A stretch of DNA of 63,423 bases, the filler included. It is 4 parts of 4 records of this genome, joined end to end, with 100 filler letters (N's around TTAATTAATTAA, not from the genome) between each part and the next. Parts side by side here need not be neighbours in the genome. Positions count along the whole stretch, not along the records: positions 22,509 to 45,994 come from SRR20825019_870; 3 more parts are not named here. One strand, written 5' to 3'. A program made the position numbers and the translations under genes. The notes beneath the pieces were generated by a model. That model was not told where the DNA came from. It made no database searches and saw only the letters and a program-made list of their open reading frames with translations. Position 1 is the first letter of the stretch. Each line of letters starts with the position of its first letter. This document shows, in pieces, positions 22,409 to 57,251 of the stretch.

Positions 22409-22508
22409 NNNNNNNNNNNNNNNNNNNNNNNNNNNNNNNNNNNNNNNNNNNNTTAATTAATTAANNNNNNNNNNNNNNNNNNNNNNNNNNNNNNNNNNNN
22501 NNNNNNNN
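22409..22508. other. Artificial contig spacer
   Basis: N runs flanking TTAATTAATTAA (stops in all frames); composition changes abruptly across it. Confidence 0.98.
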
Positions 22509-37214: not shown

Positions 37215-37458
37215 ATCTGTTTTTTATTTAAAATTAAAGGAAAAGAACAACCTAGGTAGCTGTAAGGTGAACTTTATCATTTTATTAATACTCTTACTTA
37301 ACTCAGATTAGCTTTAAATGTTAAACCCTTATTAAGAGTAACTTAAAAAGCACTTAAAACTCCTAAAACACACCGCATTTAAGGGTGTTTTAACAAGTGC
37401 TACTATTCTATATTGTTTAAAACAAAGTATCTTGTGCTAAACAAAAATTCACGTTACT

Positions 37459-40371
37459 TTGAATCGAAAAATTACATTTCTAGTACTGTTTTCAATATGT
37501 ACTTTTAGCTTTTTACAAGCACAACAATTATCTAACCAAGACATATCTAATCGAATTGAAGAGTACAAATCTTTAGATCGTGGTCCTTATAAAAAAATTG
37601 AATGGTTTTGCGAAGATGGTACTCGTAGAGACTCTAAAGACCCTTGTCCAGATAAAATTGGTGGTGGTATACAACACGCTAGTTACAAGGATAATTTAAT
37701 TGAAATTCAGAAGAAAAATCATTTATTTTTCTCAGATATCTTAGCTTACACAGAGCAAGGAGAGTTTTGGGATAGCAGAAATAACAATTCTCGCATTAAA
37801 CAATATCAACTTAATAAATACCTACAACGTATAGATGATGGTTGGGTAAACAGACGCGCACAATATTACAGAGGTTCTGTTCAATCTGAAGATGAAGAAG
37901 AATGGGGTATAGATTTTTATAACTGGTTATTATGGAGTGATGCTCGTATAGATGCAAATTACTTTTTAATTAGAGAATCTGTAAAAGACATTCCTCACAA
38001 ATCTGAAACACAAGAAGGTGCAATTATCAGAACACTATCTAAAACTATAGGCGATAATTACTCTAGGTTTATGGATATCAGGACTAAAATTCATAACCAA
38101 CCAGAAAAGGCCAATATTCAATTAGTTAAAGAGTTTCAAGAGAAAAATGCTGAAAAGCTTCCTGAGAAAATAAAAAAACAAACCGATTCACTTATAAAAG
38201 TGATGACTGCGTATTACCAACCTATTGATATTAATGAATTTAAAGCTAATGCAAGGGTGCTACCAAACGGTTCATACTTAAGGACTAAAATTGAAAAATT
38301 TACTGAAATTCATAAAGACACTATTATAACTTCTGAGTTTATTGAAGATGCATCAAACCTAATGTGTGATATAAGAACAGAATTAACAAGTATTAGAAGC
38401 ACATCAGACAGGCTTGCAGCTTTAGATATTTCAACAGATTTAGAAAATCTTATTTTTAAAACAGCTCCAGATTGGACACCTACAACTGTCGCAGAACTTT
38501 TAGATAAGATTTACGCACTTAGTCAAGCTTCAGCTAGTGCAGGATTTGTAGAATGGTGGGAATGGAATGAGGTAGACCATTTACTGCAAAATTCAAAAAA
38601 CAAAGCGCTTACATTAGATGAGCTTAACCAAAAATTAGATGTTGCCAGGAGTCAAGTTGAATGGAGTGCAGGAATGGTAAATGCCATTTATGGTGACGAT
38701 GTTGAAACTTATGCAGGTTTTGAGCCTAAAGCAAATTCTTTTATAGACGATCGCATAAGATCTTCATTAGCATTACAATTAGGGAATAGTGTTGGAGAAC
38801 TTGGTAACTTTATTGCAGAAGAAGCTAATCTCTCAAATAAAGTAGAAGGTGTAAGCAACCAAAGCAGTATAAGAGGTCTAAATCCTGGGTATGCACTTGG
38901 TGAACTTGTAGTTGTAAAAAATGCAGTAGACCATTACGATGTATCTCCTAATAAGATATATATTTTTCAAAGACCACCTTCAGATCTTAAACCAGTTGCT
39001 GGTATTGCTACAGTTACAGAAGGTAACTTGGTATCACACGTGCAATTGTTAGCTCGAAATTTAGGAATTCCAAATGCTGTTATTTCTAATGAAACTATAG
39101 ATGATATAAGCAAGTATCATGGCAAACAGATGTTTTATGCTGTTTCTAATAAAGGAACTGTTATCTTGAAGCCAGCAGATGATATGAGTAATGATGAAGA
39201 AGAGCTTTTTGAAGTAAAAAAACGAGATCAGGAAAAAATTGCAGTACCTACTCAAAAAATAGATTTAAGTAGAACAACTCCTATGGATCTTAGTGAGTTA
39301 AATGCTGCAAGTTCTGGTAAATATTGTGGTCCTAAAGCAGCCAATTTAGGACAATTAAAACAAATGTTTCCAGATAAAGTGGTTAATGGTTCTGTTATCC
39401 CTTTTGGGATATTTAAGGAGCATATGAACCAAGATATGCCATTACAAGAAGGCAGTTATTGGGATTATCTTACAGAGACTTTTGCTCAAGCTTCTAAAAT
39501 GAGAGCAGAAGATTTTTCTGAAGAGCAAGTACAATTATGTACTTTGGACAGAATGCTTCAGCTTAGGGAAGCTATCGCAAAAATGCCATTAAAGCAAAGC
39601 TTCTTAAATGATTTAGAGCAGAGTTTTCAAAAGAACTTTAATACTTCAATTGGCGGTACACCTGTATTTTTAAGAAGTGATACTAATATGGAAGATTTAG
39701 ATAGCTTTACAGGAGCAGGTTTAAATCTAACTGTTTTCAATGTAAGAGATAGAGAAAAGATTTTAAAAGGAATTAAAGATGTTTGGGCTTCTCCATATAC
39801 AGAACGTAGTTTTAAATGGCGACAACAATATTTAAATAATCCTGAAAATGTGTATCCGTCTATTTTGATCATTCCTTCTGTAGATGTTGAGTATTCTGGT
39901 GTATTAATTACAAAAGGCATAAGCAACAATAATGAAGACGACTTAACAGTAGCTTTCTCAAGAGGTGCTGGTGGCGCAGTAGATGGTCAATCTGCCGAGG
40001 CTTGGTTAATTGACACCTTTCAATCTGCACGTTTACTTTCTCCTGCTAGAGAACCTTATTACAACAGGCTACCTGCAAATGGTGGATTAGAACGAAACAT
40101 TGCAACGTTTGAAGCTCCTATACTCTCAGAAAAAAATATTGGAGATATAAGAGATTTGGCCAAAGATATAAGAGTAACCTTGCCTAAAGCTACTACGGCA
40201 GATAATACTGGACCTTATGATGTAGAGCTTGGCTTTTTAAATAATAAACTCTGGTTATTTCAAATTAGGCCTTTTGTAGAAAATGACAATGCCAAAAGTT
40301 CTGAATACTTAAAATCTATTAGCCCAGAAGTTGATGGTTCAAAAACTATTTCTTTAAACACAACATTATAA
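37459..40371 (+). CDS. Signal-peptide-bearing PEP/pyruvate-binding (PPDK/PEPS ATP-grasp) protein with phospho-His swivel domain
   Basis: Signal peptide MNRKITFLVLFSICTFSFLQA-QQ; EGNLVSHVQLLARNLGIPNA (His527); GPKAANLGQL, FLRSDTNMEDLDSFTGAG, IKDVWASPY, DVELG...LFQIRPF. Confidence 0.88.
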   Translation: MNRKITFLVLFSICTFSFLQAQQLSNQDISNRIEEYKSLDRGPYKKIEWFCEDGTRRDSKDPCPDKIGGGIQHASYKDNLIEIQKKNHLFFSDILAYTEQGEFWDSRNNNSRIKQYQLNKYLQRIDDGWVNRRAQYYRGSVQSEDEEEWGIDFYNWLLWSDARIDANYFLIRESVKDIPHKSETQEGAIIRTLSKTIGDNYSRFMDIRTKIHNQPEKANIQLVKEFQEKNAEKLPEKIKKQTDSLIKVMTAYYQPIDINEFKANARVLPNGSYLRTKIEKFTEIHKDTIITSEFIEDASNLMCDIRTELTSIRSTSDRLAALDISTDLENLIFKTAPDWTPTTVAELLDKIYALSQASASAGFVEWWEWNEVDHLLQNSKNKALTLDELNQKLDVARSQVEWSAGMVNAIYGDDVETYAGFEPKANSFIDDRIRSSLALQLGNSVGELGNFIAEEANLSNKVEGVSNQSSIRGLNPGYALGELVVVKNAVDHYDVSPNKIYIFQRPPSDLKPVAGIATVTEGNLVSHVQLLARNLGIPNAVISNETIDDISKYHGKQMFYAVSNKGTVILKPADDMSNDEEELFEVKKRDQEKIAVPTQKIDLSRTTPMDLSELNAASSGKYCGPKAANLGQLKQMFPDKVVNGSVIPFGIFKEHMNQDMPLQEGSYWDYLTETFAQASKMRAEDFSEEQVQLCTLDRMLQLREAIAKMPLKQSFLNDLEQSFQKNFNTSIGGTPVFLRSDTNMEDLDSFTGAGLNLTVFNVRDREKILKGIKDVWASPYTERSFKWRQQYLNNPENVYPSILIIPSVDVEYSGVLITKGISNNNEDDLTVAFSRGAGGAVDGQSAEAWLIDTFQSARLLSPAREPYYNRLPANGGLERNIATFEAPILSEKNIGDIRDLAKDIRVTLPKATTADNTGPYDVELGFLNNKLWLFQIRPFVENDNAKSSEYLKSISPEVDGSKTISLNTTL

Positions 40372-40372
40372 T

Positions 40373-41683
40373 ATGAATACATTTTTAAGATACATAGCGG
40401 TTATAGGTGTTTGCCTTATCGCATTTGCATTTACAACCACTAAGTCTTATCCTATAGATGGATATGCAACAACAGGTATAAAGCGCCTATTACAATTAGA
40501 ACGTATACAAAAAGACAGTACTAAAGAATTTAGAAGAATTAGAAAAGGAGCCCTACTTCCTTTAAACTGCATAAAACTTAATCTTACAGGAAAACAGAAC
40601 AGTACTCTGAATGAACTTTTAGTAGAAGACCCAGAGTTTTCTAAAAAGCTTAAAGCAATCTTACCAAGTACTAGAGGTTATTCTGTAACTGTAATGGATA
40701 TGACAAATCCAGACAATTTAAAATATGCAGGTTATAATGAACGCGCAGGTTACCAACCAGGTAGCGTAGGAAAAATAATGGTAGCTAATGCTTTATTTAC
40801 ACAATTAAAAAAAATATGTCCTGAATCTTGGGATGCTCGAACAGAGATTTTAAAAAATAAGGTTATAAGAGCTGGAGATTGGGCATTATACGATCACCAT
40901 ACAGTGCCAATTTACGATGTAGAAGATGATAAACTTATAAAACGTACAGTAAGAGCAGATGATACGTTTACACTTTATGAATGGGTAGACCATATGATGA
41001 GTGTAAGTAACAACGGTGCTGCAAGTGTGGTTTGGCGAGAAGCTGTATTAATGGAAGCCTTTGGTTACGATTATGTTAGCCTTACAGAAGAACAAGCTAA
41101 TGCGTATTGGAAAGATACAGACCGTAGAGAGTTAACTCAACTCTCTAATGATGTTGTAAACAAACCAATTCGGTTTTTAGGTATTACTGAAGATGAGTGG
41201 CGTTTGGGTAGTTTCTTTACAAGCGGAGCAAACAAACATGTAGGTGATATTGGTGGAAGTATTGGTACACCGCTCGGTCTAATGAAATATTTAGTACAGT
41301 TAGAACAAGGTAAAGTTATAGATCCTGAAAGCAGTTTAGAAATTAAACGTTTGTTGTATATGACGGACCGTAGAATTAGATACGCCTACTCTCCTACTTT
41401 AAATGATGCTGCAGTTTTCTTTAAATCTGGTAGTTTATACAGTTGTGATCGTAGTAATGGCCAATCTTGCGCAAAATATGCAGGAAACGTTTACAATTAT
41501 ATGAATAGCGTTGCTATAGTAGAGCATCCTGATGGAAAAAAATATTTAGTATGTCTTATGACAAACGTATTAAGGAAAAACTCTGCGTATGATCACCAAG
41601 CGCTTGCTGGTAGGATAGATAATTTAGTAACAGAACGAAATGCACCTGTCGAAGTTTTAGAAGAAACAAAAGACGAGAGCTAG
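40373..41683 (+). CDS. Secreted serine hydrolase, beta-lactamase/PBP fold
   Basis: Signal peptide; S131-V-G-K, S212-N-N and K351-S-G active-site motifs. Confidence 0.8.
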   Translation: MNTFLRYIAVIGVCLIAFAFTTTKSYPIDGYATTGIKRLLQLERIQKDSTKEFRRIRKGALLPLNCIKLNLTGKQNSTLNELLVEDPEFSKKLKAILPSTRGYSVTVMDMTNPDNLKYAGYNERAGYQPGSVGKIMVANALFTQLKKICPESWDARTEILKNKVIRAGDWALYDHHTVPIYDVEDDKLIKRTVRADDTFTLYEWVDHMMSVSNNGAASVVWREAVLMEAFGYDYVSLTEEQANAYWKDTDRRELTQLSNDVVNKPIRFLGITEDEWRLGSFFTSGANKHVGDIGGSIGTPLGLMKYLVQLEQGKVIDPESSLEIKRLLYMTDRRIRYAYSPTLNDAAVFFKSGSLYSCDRSNGQSCAKYAGNVYNYMNSVAIVEHPDGKKYLVCLMTNVLRKNSAYDHQALAGRIDNLVTERNAPVEVLEETKDES

Positions 41684-41711
41684 ACTTTTTAATATATATA
41701 TATATTTAAAG

Positions 41712-41749
41712 AAAGCCTCTTCCGGATAATGTGAAGAGGCTTTTTTTTT
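41712..41749 (+). terminator. Intrinsic terminator
   Basis: AAAGCCTCTTC...GAAGAGGCTTTTTTTTT. Confidence 0.85.
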
Positions 41750-42059
41750 ATTGCTTTAAATCATTCTCACCCCATTGGTCCAAACCTATAAGAATATCTT
41801 TTAAGCTGAAACCTCGAGAGGTTAATTTATATTCTACTTTAGGAGGTACTACTGGATAAACTTTTCTAGCAACCAAGCCATCTTTTTCTAATTCTCTAAC
41901 AGTTTGTGTAAACATTTTGTTTGATATCTCTGGTACTTTCTTCTGAAGCACACCAGATCGTAAAGGACCATCTAACAAATGAAATAACACTAAAGGTTTC
42001 CATTTTGTTCCAATTAATGACATTGTATAATGTAACGGACAAGAAATAGTTGTCTTCAT
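41748..42059 (-). CDS. HxlR-family winged-helix regulator
   Basis: SCPL, GTKWK, LEKDGLVARKVYPVVPPKVEYKLT. Confidence 0.93.
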   Translation of the reverse strand: MKTTISCPLHYTMSLIGTKWKPLVLFHLLDGPLRSGVLQKKVPEISNKMFTQTVRELEKDGLVARKVYPVVPPKVEYKLTSRGFSLKDILIGLDQWGENDLKQ

Positions 42060-42090
42060 AATCTATATAACATATTGTAATTCTGCATTT

Positions 42091-42143
42091 TACTCTTTTA
42101 GGTAACTATAGCACTTTTAGGTAAGTTATTGCTTTTGAGGTAA
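42091..42143. promoter_or_regulatory. Putative HxlR operator repeats
   Basis: Three CTTTT(A/GA)GGTAA direct repeats, GGTAA spaced 19 nt apart, in the divergent hxlR-VOC intergenic region. Confidence 0.55.
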
Positions 42144-42177
42144 ATATAAAGTATTTTTACATCATAAAATTATAACT

Positions 42178-42690
42178 ATGAAAGCTAATAAGAATTATCC
42201 TAAGTCTTTTTCACACATAGGTATTACCGTTCCAGATATACAGAAAGCAGTGTCATTTTACTCAGATGTTATGGGCTGGTATGTTATTATGGAACCTTCA
42301 AAAGTTAAAAAGGAAACAGATACAGCAATAGGCCAAATGTGTATCGATGTATTTGGTAATGATTGGGAAGAGTTTGAAATTGCTCACTTGGCAACTTCAG
42401 ATGGTATTGGTGTAGAGCTTTTCTCTTTTCCGCAAGGTGTAAAGGAAGCTCCAGAATTTAATCCTTTTAATACTGGTTTATTTCACTTTTGTATTCAAGA
42501 TCCAAATATTGAAGACCTTATTGAAAAAATTAAAGCTTATGGTGGTAAACAGCGTATGCCAATTAGAGAGTATTATCCTAAAGAAAAACCTTTTAAAATG
42601 TGTTATGTAGAAGATCCTTTTGGGATTGTTTTCGAAATCTATACACACAGTTATGAGTTAACTTACTCTTCTGGTGCTTACACAGGTTAA
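42178..42690 (+). CDS. VOC/lactoylglutathione lyase-family protein
   Basis: FSHIGITVPDIQKAVSFY, GLFHFC, YVEDPFGIVFEI. Confidence 0.9.
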   Translation: MKANKNYPKSFSHIGITVPDIQKAVSFYSDVMGWYVIMEPSKVKKETDTAIGQMCIDVFGNDWEEFEIAHLATSDGIGVELFSFPQGVKEAPEFNPFNTGLFHFCIQDPNIEDLIEKIKAYGGKQRMPIREYYPKEKPFKMCYVEDPFGIVFEIYTHSYELTYSSGAYTG

Positions 42691-42697
42691 TACTATT

Positions 42698-42733
42698 TAC
42701 AGGTAGTAGCCCTATAAATAGCTACTACCTGTA
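42698..42733. terminator. Terminator hairpin between convergent genes
   Basis: 13-bp perfect stem TACAGGTAGTAGC / GCTACTACCTGTA. Confidence 0.75.
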
Positions 42734-42734
42734 T

Positions 42735-45554
42735 TTATAAAGACTGTAAATTGTCCTTAGCCTGTATTGCAAACGTTCTAATTTTTTTGTGATGATGATT
42801 AATAAGTGGCTTTACCAATTTTAAATAACGCTTATCATTTAAATGCTTGAGAAGATACAATACTGCTAGTTTAATTTTAAGATCTCTTCCCTTAAGCAAG
42901 CGTTTAAAACACGTATATTCTGAAGGAATGTCACTTAACATAGTATCAGACACATCATTAGATGCAACAAGAGTTGTATTTTCGACAATTGGTAATAAAG
43001 TACTTTTTAAGTTAGGTGTTAGCAGCGTATCTAAAAACTCGATAGCATTGGCTTGCATATCTTTCTTTTCGCTTATAATACCTTGATATGCAATATCTAT
43101 ATCCTTTTGCTGGTAACGTAATCCTAATAACTGAAAAATTTGTTCCAAACCATTTTCTAAACGTCTGTCTAACAAATCTATTAAACTTTGTCGCGCAGAA
43201 AATTCATCTAAATCGTAATCAAAATTATTTTGATCTTCAAACCTAGAACTTATTTGTTTCTGTAAAGACATAGCACTTAATGTTTCCTGATACATTTTAC
43301 ATTCAGTTAAAAGACGTCTTACAATTCTACGTTTACTAAATGTTAGTTTTGGTTTGTTATTCTTAATCTTGTTTAATGCTTTGGCAGACTCTAACCTTAA
43401 CACAATGTCTTTATGCCTTAGGAGTTTAAATAACTCGTCTACAGCAGACTGTGTTTCAAATTTAGCCATTATTGCAGGAATAAATTGCTTTGCATTTTCT
43501 GCTACAGAGCCCTTATGAAGCATAATTCGTAACGTCTTAATCATTTGTGGGCCAAACTTAAACAGAGCTTCCATAGCTTCTTCTCTGAATTTTTTTAATA
43601 GAAGAAAGTCTAATAAATAGTTTATAAAGACTGCAGCTGCACTATCTCCTGCTGCACGAATAGCAGCCAATACTACACGTTCATCTCTATTGTTAAAATG
43701 TGCTGTTATAAATGAATAATATTTAGGGTCGTGAGAATAACCAACAGCTCTTAAAAGCTCAATTGTTTCTTCAGTACGATGGTGTTCACTAGGTAGGTTT
43801 ATGTTTATTATAGCTTGCTCCAGTCTATTATGTAAATCATATTGTCTTCCTATTGATGCGTTATCTCTAGATTCTTTAGACAAACATAAAAGAGCCACAG
43901 ATGAGATATATGGATCGTCATGATTTAAATAGGAATTAAAAATCTTTAGATTGTTTACGTACGTATGCGTTAAAAGATATTCCATTGCTGAAAATACAAC
44001 GTAATCATTCTTAGAGTGTACGAGTTTTTCAACCTCAACAATAGCGGTTCCTTTGTCTAAATGATATAGATTAGAAATAGCTTCAGCTTGAATTCTTGGG
44101 TTTTTATGATGAAGTAATTGAATAACTAAAGTCTTTAATCGTTTATCTGAAATAGAATTGATACGTTTCAACATATATAATATTTCAGAATCTTCACCTT
44201 TTTCTAGTACCTCTATAACTGTTTCCTTTGTAGCTTTTGTTACTTTTTTGGGTGTTGTAGAAGATGTTTTTTCAGCGAAGCTTAATAAATTACTTCTAAA
44301 CGCATTATAATAGCTTTTCCTTACCTTAAAGATTACGATAACCCAAACTACAATTAAGATTAAAATAATAAGGGTAACATATATTGTAGGCAGTTTTAAA
44401 CCTCTTATTACAAAGATGAGAAGACAACCTGCTATACCAGTTGCAATACTATCTACAACAACATCTATAAAAGCTTTAGTTTTATTTTTTAAATCATTAG
44501 AAACTGGTAGATAAAGTAACTCTGTAGATGCTTTACTAACAGATTGCTTAAAGCTTCCATCTATCGCTTTTATTATAATTACAACCCATAATTCTGGGAA
44601 TACAAGGAACAGGACAGCTGCAACACCAATTCCTATTGGCAATAGTAATAAACTGGTTGTAACACCTAGAAAATTGAGTACACGTCTTGTAAAGAATAAC
44701 TGTATTCCCAATGAAATAACATTAAAGGTGGAAAACCAAAATCCGAAGAATGAAGCCAATTCATCTGAATCTGGAATCTTACGATATGCCAAATCACTAA
44801 ACTGATAATCTACCAACTTAGCCATTAAAACTCCCAAACCAATAATTCCCGCTATGTAAGTAAGGTGTTTAGATTTTAAGACAAGTTTAAAAGAGGTGTC
44901 TTTAGAGTATTCACTTCGTTGTTTTTGCCTGAAAAACCCTAGTTTCTTAACGTGTCTATTCCATATGAAATTTAGTATTGGTATACACGCTAGTATTAAT
45001 ACAGCCGCAATTAAAATTAAGTTTTCATTTCCGATTTTTGGCGCTAATAAGGTTGTTAGGTAACCTCCTACAATACCACCAGTTATGGCACCTGCACCAA
45101 TGAACCCGAAAAGTCGTTTTGCTTGCCGTATATTAAATACAAGATTGGCAAGCAACCAAAATTGAGATGTAGTTAATAACGCGAATAATGCTACCCATAC
45201 ATAGTATATATACAAAAGCCATTCTGCAAAAAACTTAAGGCTGAGAATAATTTTTAGTGATATAAACACTAAACTGGACACCAAGATGGTTACCGTAATT
45301 ATCTGATTTAAGGGAAAGTGCTTTAATGCTTTATTATAAAAAAAAGATGTGGCAACAGCTACTAGAGCTACCAGCAAAAAAGCATAAGGAAGCGCCTCTG
45401 ATGTAAGCTCAGAAAGAAATAATGCATTTACCGTAGGCTTTACAATTAAAAGCGTAGAAATAATGATAAATACATAAAGCTGTAATAGCAAAGAAACGGC
45501 AAATTCGCCGCTTCTTATGCCAAATGTTTTTAGAAAAAATTGTTTAATTTTCAC
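42735..45554 (-). CDS. Npt1/Npt2 (TLC ATP/ADP translocase)-family transporter fused to HEAT repeats
   Basis: N-terminal ~410 aa multi-TM domain with KPTVNALFL, QFWLLANLVFNIRQAKRLFGFIGAG, LVDYQF, ELLYLPV...KAFID; C-terminal HEAT-like repeats; ANAIEFLD. Confidence 0.85.
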   Translation of the reverse strand: MKIKQFFLKTFGIRSGEFAVSLLLQLYVFIIISTLLIVKPTVNALFLSELTSEALPYAFLLVALVAVATSFFYNKALKHFPLNQIITVTILVSSLVFISLKIILSLKFFAEWLLYIYYVWVALFALLTTSQFWLLANLVFNIRQAKRLFGFIGAGAITGGIVGGYLTTLLAPKIGNENLILIAAVLILACIPILNFIWNRHVKKLGFFRQKQRSEYSKDTSFKLVLKSKHLTYIAGIIGLGVLMAKLVDYQFSDLAYRKIPDSDELASFFGFWFSTFNVISLGIQLFFTRRVLNFLGVTTSLLLLPIGIGVAAVLFLVFPELWVVIIIKAIDGSFKQSVSKASTELLYLPVSNDLKNKTKAFIDVVVDSIATGIAGCLLIFVIRGLKLPTIYVTLIILILIVVWVIVIFKVRKSYYNAFRSNLLSFAEKTSSTTPKKVTKATKETVIEVLEKGEDSEILYMLKRINSISDKRLKTLVIQLLHHKNPRIQAEAISNLYHLDKGTAIVEVEKLVHSKNDYVVFSAMEYLLTHTYVNNLKIFNSYLNHDDPYISSVALLCLSKESRDNASIGRQYDLHNRLEQAIININLPSEHHRTEETIELLRAVGYSHDPKYYSFITAHFNNRDERVVLAAIRAAGDSAAAVFINYLLDFLLLKKFREEAMEALFKFGPQMIKTLRIMLHKGSVAENAKQFIPAIMAKFETQSAVDELFKLLRHKDIVLRLESAKALNKIKNNKPKLTFSKRRIVRRLLTECKMYQETLSAMSLQKQISSRFEDQNNFDYDLDEFSARQSLIDLLDRRLENGLEQIFQLLGLRYQQKDIDIAYQGIISEKKDMQANAIEFLDTLLTPNLKSTLLPIVENTTLVASNDVSDTMLSDIPSEYTCFKRLLKGRDLKIKLAVLYLLKHLNDKRYLKLVKPLINHHHKKIRTFAIQAKDNLQSL

Positions 45555-45574
45555 AAAGTGAAACTAAACATAAA

Positions 45575-45994
45575 TTAACTGTTTTCAAAGGATCGCAGTT
45601 TTTTTATGATTTTTTCAACAGGAACTACTAGGTTCCGTATAATCTGTTCTCCATTAGGATCATCGACCAAGGCTACTAATATATATTTCCTGCCATCTTC
45701 TCCCCAAACAAGTATAGAATCTGAGTGGAAATTTCTCCAAGATCCAGATTTTCTAAACAACCTTGCATTAGGTGCTATTCTGTCTAAGGTATTTACAAAT
45801 TTATGATGTAATGCTGGGTTTTCCATGATATCCAACATTTCTTGGGAGCGTTCTTTATTAACCAAGTTACCAGTAACTAATTTGTAGTAAAACCTACAAA
45901 CTTGCTTTACTGAAGCTGCGTGACTTAATCCCTTAATAGGATCTGGCACTCTATTTCCTTGTGCAGCATAACGCTTGCCTACCCAAAGACCACC
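45575..45994 (-). CDS. Serine hydrolase (class A beta-lactamase-like), C-terminal part
   Basis: GGLWVGKRYA..., RKSGSWRNFHSDS (KSG motif), YILVALV; 5' part cut by the contig end. Confidence 0.75.
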   Translation of the reverse strand, partial: GGLWVGKRYAAQGNRVPDPIKGLSHAASVKQVCRFYYKLVTGNLVNKERSQEMLDIMENPALHHKFVNTLDRIAPNARLFRKSGSWRNFHSDSILVWGEDGRKYILVALVDDPNGEQIIRNLVVPVEKIIKKLRSFENS

Positions 45995-46094
45995 NNNNNN
46001 NNNNNNNNNNNNNNNNNNNNNNNNNNNNNNNNNNNNNNTTAATTAATTAANNNNNNNNNNNNNNNNNNNNNNNNNNNNNNNNNNNNNNNNNNNN
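45995..46094. other. Artificial contig spacer
   Basis: N runs plus TTAATTAATTAA. Confidence 0.98.
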
Positions 46095-57151: not shown

Positions 57152-57251
57152 NNNNNNNNNNNNNNNNNNNNNNNNNNNNNNNNNNNNNNNNNNNNTTAAT
57201 TAATTAANNNNNNNNNNNNNNNNNNNNNNNNNNNNNNNNNNNNNNNNNNNN
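57152..57251. other. Artificial contig spacer
   Basis: N runs plus TTAATTAATTAA. Confidence 0.98.

Follow-up and report, generated by a model that had tools for sequence, protein, structure and literature searches.

Four genes, encoding a predicted exported dikinase (DIK), two predicted exported serine enzymes (bla1 and bla2) and a carrier in which an NTT membrane domain is fused to HEAT repeats (NTT-HEAT), are best explained as a single envelope module in which two operons of two genes each, DIK-bla1 and bla2-NTT-HEAT, converge. The set points to an ATP-fuelled envelope reaction that has not been described; we found no description of such a module in the literature on NTT-HEAT, periplasmic ATP and kinases, dikinases, or ADP translocases.

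The window, by which we mean the whole 63,423-nucleotide stretch analysed, consists of four contigs joined by N44-TTAATTAATTAA-N44 linkers (22409-22508, 45995-46094 and 57152-57251), with abrupt shifts in GC content from contig to contig. The four open reading frames lie where the first-pass annotation had placed them, with the same gaps of 1 and 20 nt; its account of this 8.5 kb named these four genes and passed over two others, for an HxlR regulator and a VOC/glyoxalase:

37459..40371, + strand: DIK, putative exported His-dependent dikinase, 970 aa, TTG start; Pfam PPDK_N
40373..41683, + strand: bla1, predicted exported class-A-beta-lactamase/PBP-fold serine enzyme, 436 aa; Pfam Beta-lactamase2, E 9.7e-11
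41748..42059, - strand: HxlR-type regulator; Pfam HxlR, E 1.7e-29
42178..42690, + strand: VOC/glyoxalase-family protein; Pfam Glyoxalase, E 4.9e-16
42735..45554, - strand: NTT-HEAT carrier, 939 aa; Pfam TLC, 55.1 bits, and HEAT_2, 64.7 bits
45575..45994, - strand: bla2 fragment, C-terminal 139 codons; Pfam Beta-lactamase2, E 8.6e-11 on the fragment

The 1-nt gap separates the DIK stop from bla1, and the 20-nt gap the bla2 stop from the NTT-HEAT start on the same (-) strand. The second KSG serine hydrolase of the first-pass annotation is indeed a Beta-lactamase2 gene preceding NTT-HEAT, but the window holds only its C-terminal fragment, which ends at 45994 because the linker begins at 45995. 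A 99%-identical complete genome (G001) carries the entire four-gene locus, including a complete bla2 (P0001) of 303 aa with a signal peptide and the SxxK motif. In the window the HxlR and VOC/glyoxalase genes separate the DIK-bla1 pair from the bla2-NTT-HEAT pair; among the 21 loci mapped they occupy this position in the lineage of G001 and the window only, and are lineage-specific insertions outside the conserved module.

The first-pass annotation had staked its proposal on the four genes keeping company in other genomes, and they do. Across 101 genus-level representative genomes of the family, counting full-length DIK and NTT-HEAT, the four genes are all present in one set of 21 genomes and all missing from the other 80, so that their patterns of presence and absence are identical. 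In a 301-genome sample of the phylum, the genomes with a close NTT-HEAT (E <= 1e-140) are exactly the 8 that carry DIK. The genes form a single cluster in 23 of 26 genomes examined, among them genomes of another family in which gene order is rearranged. Of 45 metagenome loci that extend 7 kb or more downstream, 39 have the whole set together, and bla1 lies immediately 3' of DIK in all 66 metagenome loci whose flank reaches 1300 bp or more. This grouping is well past chance expectation. The flanks are not conserved, every other neighbouring gene being common to at most 6 of 21 loci, and the neighbouring genes of these 21 loci showed no mobile-element context. The carriers of the set are free-living marine genera.

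DIK matches Pfam PPDK_N (PF01326) over residues 623-950 (E 3.4e-20; 73 bits against a cut-off of 27), and its AF2 model has a pLDDT of 89 and a pTM of 0.84. The protein divides as follows:

residues 1-22: signal peptide, followed by a small beta unit with Cys51/Cys63 and a helical N-domain to about residue 460
about residues 460-590: phospho-His swivel domain, with His527 at 39037-39039
about residues 604-950 (39268-40308): ATP-grasp domain

The ATP-grasp and swivel domains, the latter with the catalytic His, are homologous to those of PEP synthase, PPDK, rifampin phosphotransferase and HpeI. Residues 604-941 match rifampin phosphotransferase 5hv1 (VIA Z 31.6, rmsd 3.2, 310 aligned residues), with further ATP-grasp fold matches to HpeI (9goj, Z 27.1) and to 1vbg (Z 17.0), and in the fold search residues 460-583 match phospho-carrier domains at Z 7.8-9.2. 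The DIK family profile also matches both domains of PEP synthase 8a8e; the swivel alignment (479-558, domain E 5e-6) places the SH of DIK on the catalytic TSH. Pfam at E <= 0.01 did not report the swivel family PF00391 on DIK itself, and PF00391 is precomputed on some distant relatives. The conserved motifs are GPKAANLG, RSDTNxEDL..GAGLN, DIEFGF..FQIRP and GNxLSHVQLLARNLGIPN; His527 is conserved in at least 90% of DIK sequences, and the nucleotide-site and catalytic-His motifs are kept at 90-100% down to about 28% identity. With these motifs intact, DIK is predicted to be catalytically competent.

Unlike PEP synthase, PPDK and rifampin phosphotransferase, DIK has permuted domains, the His domain preceding the ATP-grasp, is predicted to be exported, and is without the rifampin-binding domain. 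Pfam gave no match on DIK to the PEP/pyruvate TIM-barrel, and NCBIfam PEP-synthase equivalogs scored at most 91 bits against cut-offs of 598-883. The order of N-domain, His domain and C-terminal ATP-grasp is instead like that of plant GWD/PWD; according to PMC13553574, GWD runs from a substrate-binding part through a phospho-His domain to a C-terminal ATP-binding domain. This likeness is set by domain order, as no GWD chain is among the PDB sequence or fold matches of DIK, and it would extend by analogy to the expected chemistry (X-OH + ATP + H2O -> X-P + AMP + Pi). Unlike GWD, DIK is bacterial, has a signal peptide and an all-helical N-domain, and is without CBM45/CBM20. No Pfam family covers residues 1-620, and fold searches with the whole model and with the N-domain alone returned generic helix bundles only (best Z 10.6); the ESM Atlas gave two clusters for the N-domain at 0.84 and 0.76, below the useful range. 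The putative substrate-binding domain is therefore without a recognised fold, and there may be a phosphorylated compound, from the envelope or exogenous, still to be discovered. A predicted complex of DIK residues 23-595 with bla1 residues 22-436 scored 0.00, in a run without controls that gives no verdict.

The first-pass annotation had called the dikinase secreted, and its export is supported: signal peptides were seen in all 20 orthologues read of each of DIK, bla1 and bla2, a hydrophobic N-terminus is present in 103 of 109 full-length distant proteobacterial relatives of DIK, and the DIK Cys pair is nearly invariant.

Both serine enzymes resemble class A beta-lactamases and PBP-A-type DD-peptidases in the Beta-lactamase2 profile (PF13354; 41.9 bits for bla1, 74.6 bits for full bla2) and in their SxxK/SxN/KSG motifs. 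In 20 orthologues of each, S131xxK134, S212-N-N214, K351-S-G353 and Cys358/Cys366 of bla1 are invariant, as are S95xxK98, S131-N-N133 and K246-S-G248 of bla2. Unlike class A beta-lactamases, bla1 carries about 80 extra N-terminal residues, opening with an invariant YPIDGY, reaches 21 bits with NCBIfam bla_class_A, for which the cut-off is 200 (the bla2 fragment has no match), and matches nothing meaningful among solved structures, by sequence or by profile. The sole solved relative of bla2 is the DD-peptidase-like Tll2115 protein 2j7v, presumably PBP-A, which is matched weakly (E 0.0098) and, with the bla2 profile, marginally.

NTT-HEAT comprises two parts:

about residues 1-420 (44295-45554): NTT/TLC membrane domain
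about residues 421-939 (42738-44294): HEAT repeats, presumably on the cytoplasmic side

Pfam places TLC (PF03219) at residues 60-319, above its cut-off of 21, and HEAT_2/HEAT at 476-734. The protein aligns with the solved plastid ADP,ATP carrier 9j3j (phmmer E 4.5e-9) over a region spanning ..E..Y.P.. and the K.K.KA.IDVV stretch, Kyte-Doolittle hydropathy shows a K/R-rich central loop and some 12 segments, about 10 of them clear and 2 weak, and 113 positions of residues 1-440 are at least 95% conserved across 21 orthologues. This profile and alignment connect it with plastid NTT1 and with the Tlc/Npt carriers of Rickettsia and Chlamydia; unlike these characterised carriers it is very divergent, bears a 520-residue C-terminal HEAT domain and has a free-living host. 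Judged by sequence, the resemblance of the NTT domain to characterised carriers is a distant one. It shares its architecture, an NTT domain followed by HEAT repeats, with the fusion family of Major, Embley & Williams 2017 (PMC5381601), described there as monophyletic, uncharacterised and widespread in bacteria including Bacteroidetes. The part of PMC5381601 available stresses that the roles of NTT relatives are unknown and names no partner enzymes. In the present module, a clade of NTT-HEAT proteins goes with a predicted exported dikinase and a pair of PBP-fold enzymes.

We propose, at about even odds (roughly 0.5), that NTT-HEAT swaps cytoplasmic ATP for periplasmic AMP or ADP (+Pi) and so feeds DIK, which phosphorylates an envelope substrate processed by bla1 and bla2. 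DIK, bla1 and bla2 all carry signal peptides, through which Sec would export them to the periplasm. NTT-HEAT would sit in the inner membrane, its HEAT repeats facing the cytoplasm, and, to judge from the NTT family, would exchange cytoplasmic ATP for periplasmic AMP, or for ADP plus Pi. By homology, DIK would spend this ATP in the manner of PEP synthase, rifampin phosphotransferase and glucan,water dikinase: the beta-phosphate would pass from its ATP-grasp to His527, and the swivel domain that bears this residue would deliver it to a substrate hydroxyl at the helical N-domain, with AMP and Pi leaving. bla1 and bla2, as SxxK acyl-serine enzymes, could cut or remodel an amide or ester of the same substrate before or after phosphorylation; we would guess, with low confidence, at an envelope compound that derives from peptidoglycan or otherwise contains D-amino acids. 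By homology, adenine nucleotides and Pi would be the only ligands shared by the dikinase and NTT families. DIK should release AMP, whereas characterised NTTs swap ATP for ADP, a mismatch with this reading; relative to those carriers, the exchange we propose runs outward, perhaps with AMP as counter-substrate. PMC2606016 describes two-way exchange by NTTs, with Pi as a co-substrate of ADP, and a mechanism that permits ATP export. The periplasmic phosphorylation system put forward in the first-pass annotation is thus borne out in part, by co-occurrence, clustering, predicted export and intact motifs; adenine-nucleotide transport by NTT-HEAT, its outward direction and the substrate of DIK are what we infer beyond these.

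Related proteins also occur apart. Distant NTT-HEAT proteins (27-32% identity) were found in genomes without DIK, beside different envelope genes; one such clade adjoins an Omp85-like protein and a lipoprotein metallophosphoesterase, and by hhalign an uncharacterised lipoprotein encoded beside distant NTT-HEAT genes shows no relation to the DIK family. Conversely, other signal-peptide proteins with His and ATP-grasp domains (628 aa and >1100 aa) occur in genomes for which two queries found no NTT; the Pfam control recovered only 2 of 3 known carriers. Dikinase-like exported proteins in genomes where no NTT was found, and NTT-HEAT without DIK, cut against a simple need for an NTT to supply ATP.

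These same proteins lend something to a reading that we consider unlikely, in which the four genes still belong to a single module while its carrier brings in the phosphorylated product, or some other solute made by the pathway, and DIK has another source of phosphate, for example leaked or environmental ATP or another nucleotide. The linkage evidence fits it as well as it fits ATP export, the cargo of NTT relatives is varied (NAD, SAM and other nucleotides), and the distant clade beside the Omp85-like protein and metallophosphoesterase resembles an uptake or scavenging system. It leaves the periplasmic ATP source for an intact ATP-grasp unexplained, however, and in this family carrier and DIK are never found one without the other. 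We give little credence to periplasmic inactivation of antibiotics or xenobiotics, with DIK phosphorylating a hydroxylated drug and bla1 and bla2 hydrolysing lactams. Rifampin phosphotransferase is the top fold match of the ATP-grasp (Z 31.6) and both serine enzymes show the fold and the motifs of class A beta-lactamases, but NCBIfam scores fall far under the equivalog cut-offs (RIF_Ptrans_rph 43 bits against 999; bla_class_A 21 against 200), the domain order differs from that of rifampin phosphotransferase, the fold searches related the N-domain to no solved drug-binding domain, and the only solved relative of bla2, a weak one, is DD-peptidase-like. Strict four-gene inheritance in free-living marine genera, at loci without a mobile-element context, speaks for a physiological role more than for acquired resistance.

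The remaining alternatives concern DIK and its location. DIK might not turn over external ATP, acting as a binding or sensor protein or using PPi or polyphosphate as donor, its link to the carrier reflecting regulation or an unrelated shared substrate. The general view is that the periplasm has no ATP, which favours this idea, as does an N-domain without a known fold; we nonetheless think it improbable, since motifs kept at 90-100% in sequences with as little as about 28% identity are difficult to account for in a protein that is not catalytic. It is very improbable that the hydrophobic N-termini are not export signals and that the grouping reflects an ordinary cytoplasmic pathway: signal peptides were read here without a dedicated predictor, but three different proteins have N-termini with a short n-region and an h-region in every orthologue, Cys pairs are conserved in DIK and bla1, and SxxK PBP-fold enzymes are typically extracytoplasmic.

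ATP supply by NTT-HEAT would have parallels elsewhere. GWD acts in a compartment supplied with ATP by NTT carriers, and in the endoplasmic reticulum (AXER/SLC35B1) and peroxisomes antiporters feed ATP to lumenal enzymes and return ADP or AMP. The proposed module would share the logic of this ER and peroxisomal supply, through unrelated carrier families; we know of no bacterial periplasmic counterpart. As far as we are aware, textbooks treat the periplasm as ATP-free and its enzymes as ATP-independent, and an all-or-none module pairing an exported, intact ATP-grasp/His dikinase with a relative of ATP/ADP translocases is a concrete, testable case against that rule. The fuller claim is that a bacterial periplasm here runs, as the first one known, an enzymatic pathway fuelled by ATP. 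One NTT-HEAT clade would export ATP, taking back AMP/ADP and Pi, to power an exported enzyme akin to glucan,water dikinase, whose substrate for phosphorylation would be captured or belong to the cell envelope. This is possible, and we hold it tentatively. If true, by extension, NTT-HEAT proteins in other free-living bacteria, cyanobacteria and chlamydiae may energise the extracytoplasmic space. The module is the first functional lead for these fusions, which were reported in 2017 to be widespread among free-living bacteria, without a known role (PMC5381601).

An Rfam scan of the G001 locus gave no RNA family, and no PADLOC anti-phage defence model matches any of the four proteins (0 families). 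A sigma-70 and terminator scan of the locus did no better than shuffles, as is expected for Bacteroidota. Contigs from 4 marine metatranscriptome libraries cover the whole stretch, which is consistent with expression and no proof of it. The DIK family as a whole comprises 326 representative clusters at E <= 1e-30 and ranges over Bacteroidota and several proteobacterial classes.

The locus occupies the 3' end of the window's second contig (22509-45994). It comprises a putatively exported dikinase, two Beta-lactamase2-family serine enzymes (bla1 and bla2), and a nucleotide-transporter-family carrier, NTT-HEAT, in which a TLC membrane domain is fused to HEAT repeats.

Features of the locus (window coordinates)
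37459-40371, plus strand: dikinase, 970 aa, with Pfam PPDK_N at residues 623-950
40373-41683, plus strand: bla1, Beta-lactamase2 family, 436 aa, beginning 1 nt past the dikinase
41748-42059, minus strand: HxlR regulator, between the dikinase-bla1 and bla2-NTT-HEAT pairs
42178-42690, plus strand: VOC/glyoxalase protein, between the same two pairs
42735-45554, minus strand: NTT-HEAT, 939 aa, TLC and HEAT
to the contig end at 45994, minus strand: bla2, Beta-lactamase2 ORF, stop 20 nt upstream of the NTT-HEAT start

The ORF listing and Pfam bear out all four genes that the first-pass annotation had grouped as a candidate ATP-dependent periplasmic system; the HxlR and VOC/glyoxalase genes that separate the two pairs had gone unmentioned. 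Because the bla2 frame is open up to the contig end, just its last 139 codons fall within the window, and we read the full gene from G001, a complete 2.95-Mb genome carrying the same locus at 99% protein identity, where bla2 encodes 303 aa that include a signal peptide and an SxxK motif. Four contigs, and not one molecule, make up the window; linkers of the form N44-TTAATTAATTAA-N44 join them at 22409-22508, 45995-46094 and 57152-57251. GC content differs sharply between the contigs (about 57%, 32%, 38% and 54%, in order), so adjoining stretches need not be one organism's; only 30% of sampled words of the window are present in G001, its nearest genome. The HxlR and VOC/glyoxalase insertion (41748-42690) is confined, among 21 loci mapped, to the lineage of the window and G001.

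The four genes are inherited together. In a family sample of 101 genomes around G001, one per genus, full-length dikinase orthologues (49-99% identity) occur in 21, full-length NTT-HEAT in the same 21, and the profiles built from family alignments of bla1 and bla2 match those 21 genomes, but none of the 80 others, at E <= 1e-5; the presence profiles are thus identical across the 101 genomes, which, being related, are non-independent samples. Absence of such co-occurrence had been named at the outset as grounds for rejecting the proposal. Across a sample of the phylum (301 genomes) a full-length dikinase was found in eight, comprising 6 of 23 genomes of the same family, one of another family of the class and one of another class, and close NTT-HEAT homologs (E <= 1e-140) were found in exactly those eight. 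By source name, marine flavobacteria with the module include Dokdonia, Cellulophaga, Maribacter and Winogradskyella.

Gene order is likewise conserved. Extracting 20-kb neighbourhoods, all from Bacteroidota, and clustering all their ORFs gave the arrangement bla2>NTT-HEAT> <bla1<DIK (DIK being the dikinase), with all four genes present, at 19 of 20 dikinase-bearing loci from the family sample. At the twentieth, in genome G039, the dikinase adjoins bla2-NTT-HEAT, and a second NTT-HEAT lies elsewhere with bla1. The standard cluster recurs in three further family genomes; in G015 the dikinase-bla1 and bla2-NTT-HEAT pairs are split over two contigs, in G244 (another family) all four are present with the carrier orientation reversed, and in G265 (another class) the contig stops inside the carrier. 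Overall, 23 of 26 genomes examined hold all four in one cluster. An independent scan of metagenome contigs recovered 80 loci, some probably from one organism sampled repeatedly: bla1 lies directly downstream of the dikinase at all 66 loci whose flank reaches 1300 bp or more, and all four genes are present at 39 of the 45 with at least 7 kb downstream, the other six being five with dikinase-bla1 alone within 8 kb and one with the carrier at the locus edge. No other neighbouring gene family is common to more than 6 of 21 loci, and the neighbours that do recur have housekeeping roles (propionyl-CoA carboxylase subunits, an MFS transporter and an amidohydrolase). We conclude that the four-gene module is real, with a probability of about 0.95.

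Two variations were seen at these loci. The two NTT-HEAT genes of G039 (L068:6071-12807 and L069:7126-11303, in coordinates of the extracted loci) lie one with bla2, abutting the dikinase, and the other with bla1. In two genomes a TerC-family membrane protein sits between the carrier and bla1 (L072:9400-10341 and L074:9765-10751); TerC proteins are tied to the metal supply of exported enzymes.

By sequence, the predicted proteins belong to known superfamilies, namely His-dependent dikinases, NTT carriers and class A beta-lactamase/PBP-A-fold enzymes, and none attains the score of a characterised NCBIfam equivalog. Full-text literature searches found no system that combines an exported dikinase with two PBP-fold enzymes and an NTT carrier, and we know of no precedent for such a linkage. 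The closest parallel is in the plastid: there an NTT imports ATP into the compartment that holds glucan,water dikinase.

The dikinase family is large: it counts 2880 representative clusters at E <= 0.001, of which 326 reach E <= 1e-30. Among the 150 matches listed, many are full-length proteins with 28-35% identity. In an alignment of 39 members the (near-)invariant motifs are an N-terminal RGP..W.C.DG...C holding Cys51 and Cys63, a stretch GN.LSHVQLLARNLGIPN holding His527, GPKAANLG, and RSDTN.EDL..F.GAGLN.T with DIEFGF...L.LFQIRP. The profile of this alignment hits PEP synthase structures twice, once with positions 701-953 on the ATP-grasp and once with 479-558 on the phospho-His swivel domain, where SH falls on the catalytic TSH. 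The AlphaFold model (pLDDT 89.1, pTM 0.84) begins with a signal helix and a small beta unit; the chain is then all-helical until about residue 460, a beta-rich domain follows at 460-583, and an ATP-grasp occupies 604-941, after which come about 30 residues and no extra domain. In structure searches the ATP-grasp gave Z scores of 31.6 against rifampin phosphotransferase, 27.1 against HpeI and 17.0 against maize PPDK, and residues 460-583 scored Z 7.8-9.2 against phospho-carrier domains (pyruvate kinase, Enzyme I, PPDK). A search with the whole model returned nothing but generic bundles for the helical region, and the N-domain folded alone (pLDDT 79.5) retrieved only designed or generic bundles, its best Z of 10.6 being below the meaningful level for helical proteins; this domain is without a recognised fold. 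The resulting order, N-domain, His domain, ATP-grasp, differs by permutation from that of PEP synthase, PPDK and rifampin phosphotransferase. It matches the order reported for potato glucan,water dikinase, whose fourth domain holds the catalytic His and whose C-terminal domain binds ATP (PMC13553574). Pfam found no starch-binding module in the dikinase.

The dikinase is predicted to be periplasmic. In 20 of 20 orthologues each of the dikinase, bla1 and bla2 the N-terminus is a short basic and then hydrophobic stretch, and no twin-arginine motif was found in the dikinase. A clade of roughly 30%-identical dikinases with 109 full-length members, which by source names are Delta-, Gamma- and Alphaproteobacteria MAGs plus two named isolates, retains a hydrophobic N-terminus in 103 (by a crude hydrophobic-window test), SH[VIL]Q in 107 and WFC.D in 108. 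Conserved cysteine pairs in the dikinase and in bla1 (Cys358/Cys366) are consistent with an oxidising compartment. In both bla1 and bla2, SxxK, S-N-N and K-S-G are invariant, and their scores fall far under the class A beta-lactamase equivalog cut-off. The sole solved sequence relative of bla2 is the Tll2115 protein 2j7v (E 0.0098), known as PBP-A, which resembles DD-peptidases and is related to class A enzymes; for bla1, no solved structure is a relative by sequence.

In the carrier, residues 1 to ~420 match TLC above the Pfam cut-off, and a match to the solved plastid ADP,ATP carrier 9j3j (E 4.5e-9) covers the conserved ..E..Y.P.. and K.K.KA.IDVV stretch. Because hydropathy points to a 6+6 layout of helices around a K/R-rich central loop, with a positive stretch past the last helix, the 520-residue HEAT domain should face the cytoplasm. 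Mean column identity is 0.70 in the membrane domain, which has 17 conserved charged positions, against 0.53 in the HEAT domain. Major, Embley and Williams (PMC5381601) described NTT-HEAT fusions as a monophyletic group that is widely distributed in bacteria, Bacteroidetes among them, and has no characterised function.

From the all-or-none inheritance of the genes we infer that the carrier handles a compound of the dikinase pathway. By homology, the dikinase ligands would be ATP, AMP, Pi and a substrate X-OH and those of the NTT family nucleotides and Pi, an overlap of adenine nucleotide and Pi. Liposome-reconstituted NTTs catalyse both ATP-in/ADP-out and ADP-in/ATP-out exchange, with Pi moving with ADP (PMC2606016); outward ATP flow is thus mechanistically possible. 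NTT-HEAT would then exchange cytoplasmic ATP for the periplasmic products of the dikinase, which would phosphorylate a substrate held by its helical domain, and the two acyl-serine enzymes would cleave or remodel that same substrate. Against this scheme, the counter-substrate of characterised NTTs is ADP, not AMP. What the analysis shows is that the genes are linked, which domains the proteins contain, that their motifs are conserved and that they carry export signals, and each biochemical step is inferred; we give ATP supply of the dikinase through the carrier even odds, and the broader claim of an ATP-energised periplasmic pathway is tentative, with the balance somewhat against it. As a weak guess, made solely from the PBP-like fold of the partner enzymes, X might be a peptidoglycan-derived or D-amino-acid-containing compound, or possibly a drug or a glycan.

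Relatives of the carrier and of the dikinase weigh against a simple reading in which the NTT is required for ATP supply. Distant NTT-HEAT proteins (27-32% identity) occur in four genomes without the dikinase. At L109:7940-15337, L110:8646-16016 and L111:4048-11422 genes for an Omp85-like protein, a lipoprotein of ~561-568 aa, a metallophosphoesterase lipoprotein and a MarR regulator come after the carrier, and at L112:962-6148 a 573-aa lipoprotein lies just upstream; this envelope context fits nucleotide scavenging equally well as export. Genomes of the family also encode further proteins with a signal peptide that share the His and ATP-grasp domains but have different N- or C-terminal parts, among them one of 628 aa (L026:895-2781) and one of >1100 aa followed by a long repeat-rich tail (L024:1-3339, minus strand). 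The five genomes with such proteins gave no match to the carrier protein or to Pfam TLC, in a search whose TLC control recovered two of three known carriers, so exported dikinase-like enzymes may not always depend on an NTT. Enzymes of this exported, dikinase-like kind may make up a wider and unstudied group in Bacteroidota.

Contigs of four marine metatranscriptome libraries span all 30 bins of 37300-45990, every contig at >=95% identity, which is not proof of transcription, as RNA libraries can contain DNA. Across 11 studies, 19 public runs contain DNA near-identical to 37300-45990, sharing 0.58-1.00 of its sampled words; most of them come from seawater, from algae-associated material or from marine metatranscriptomes.
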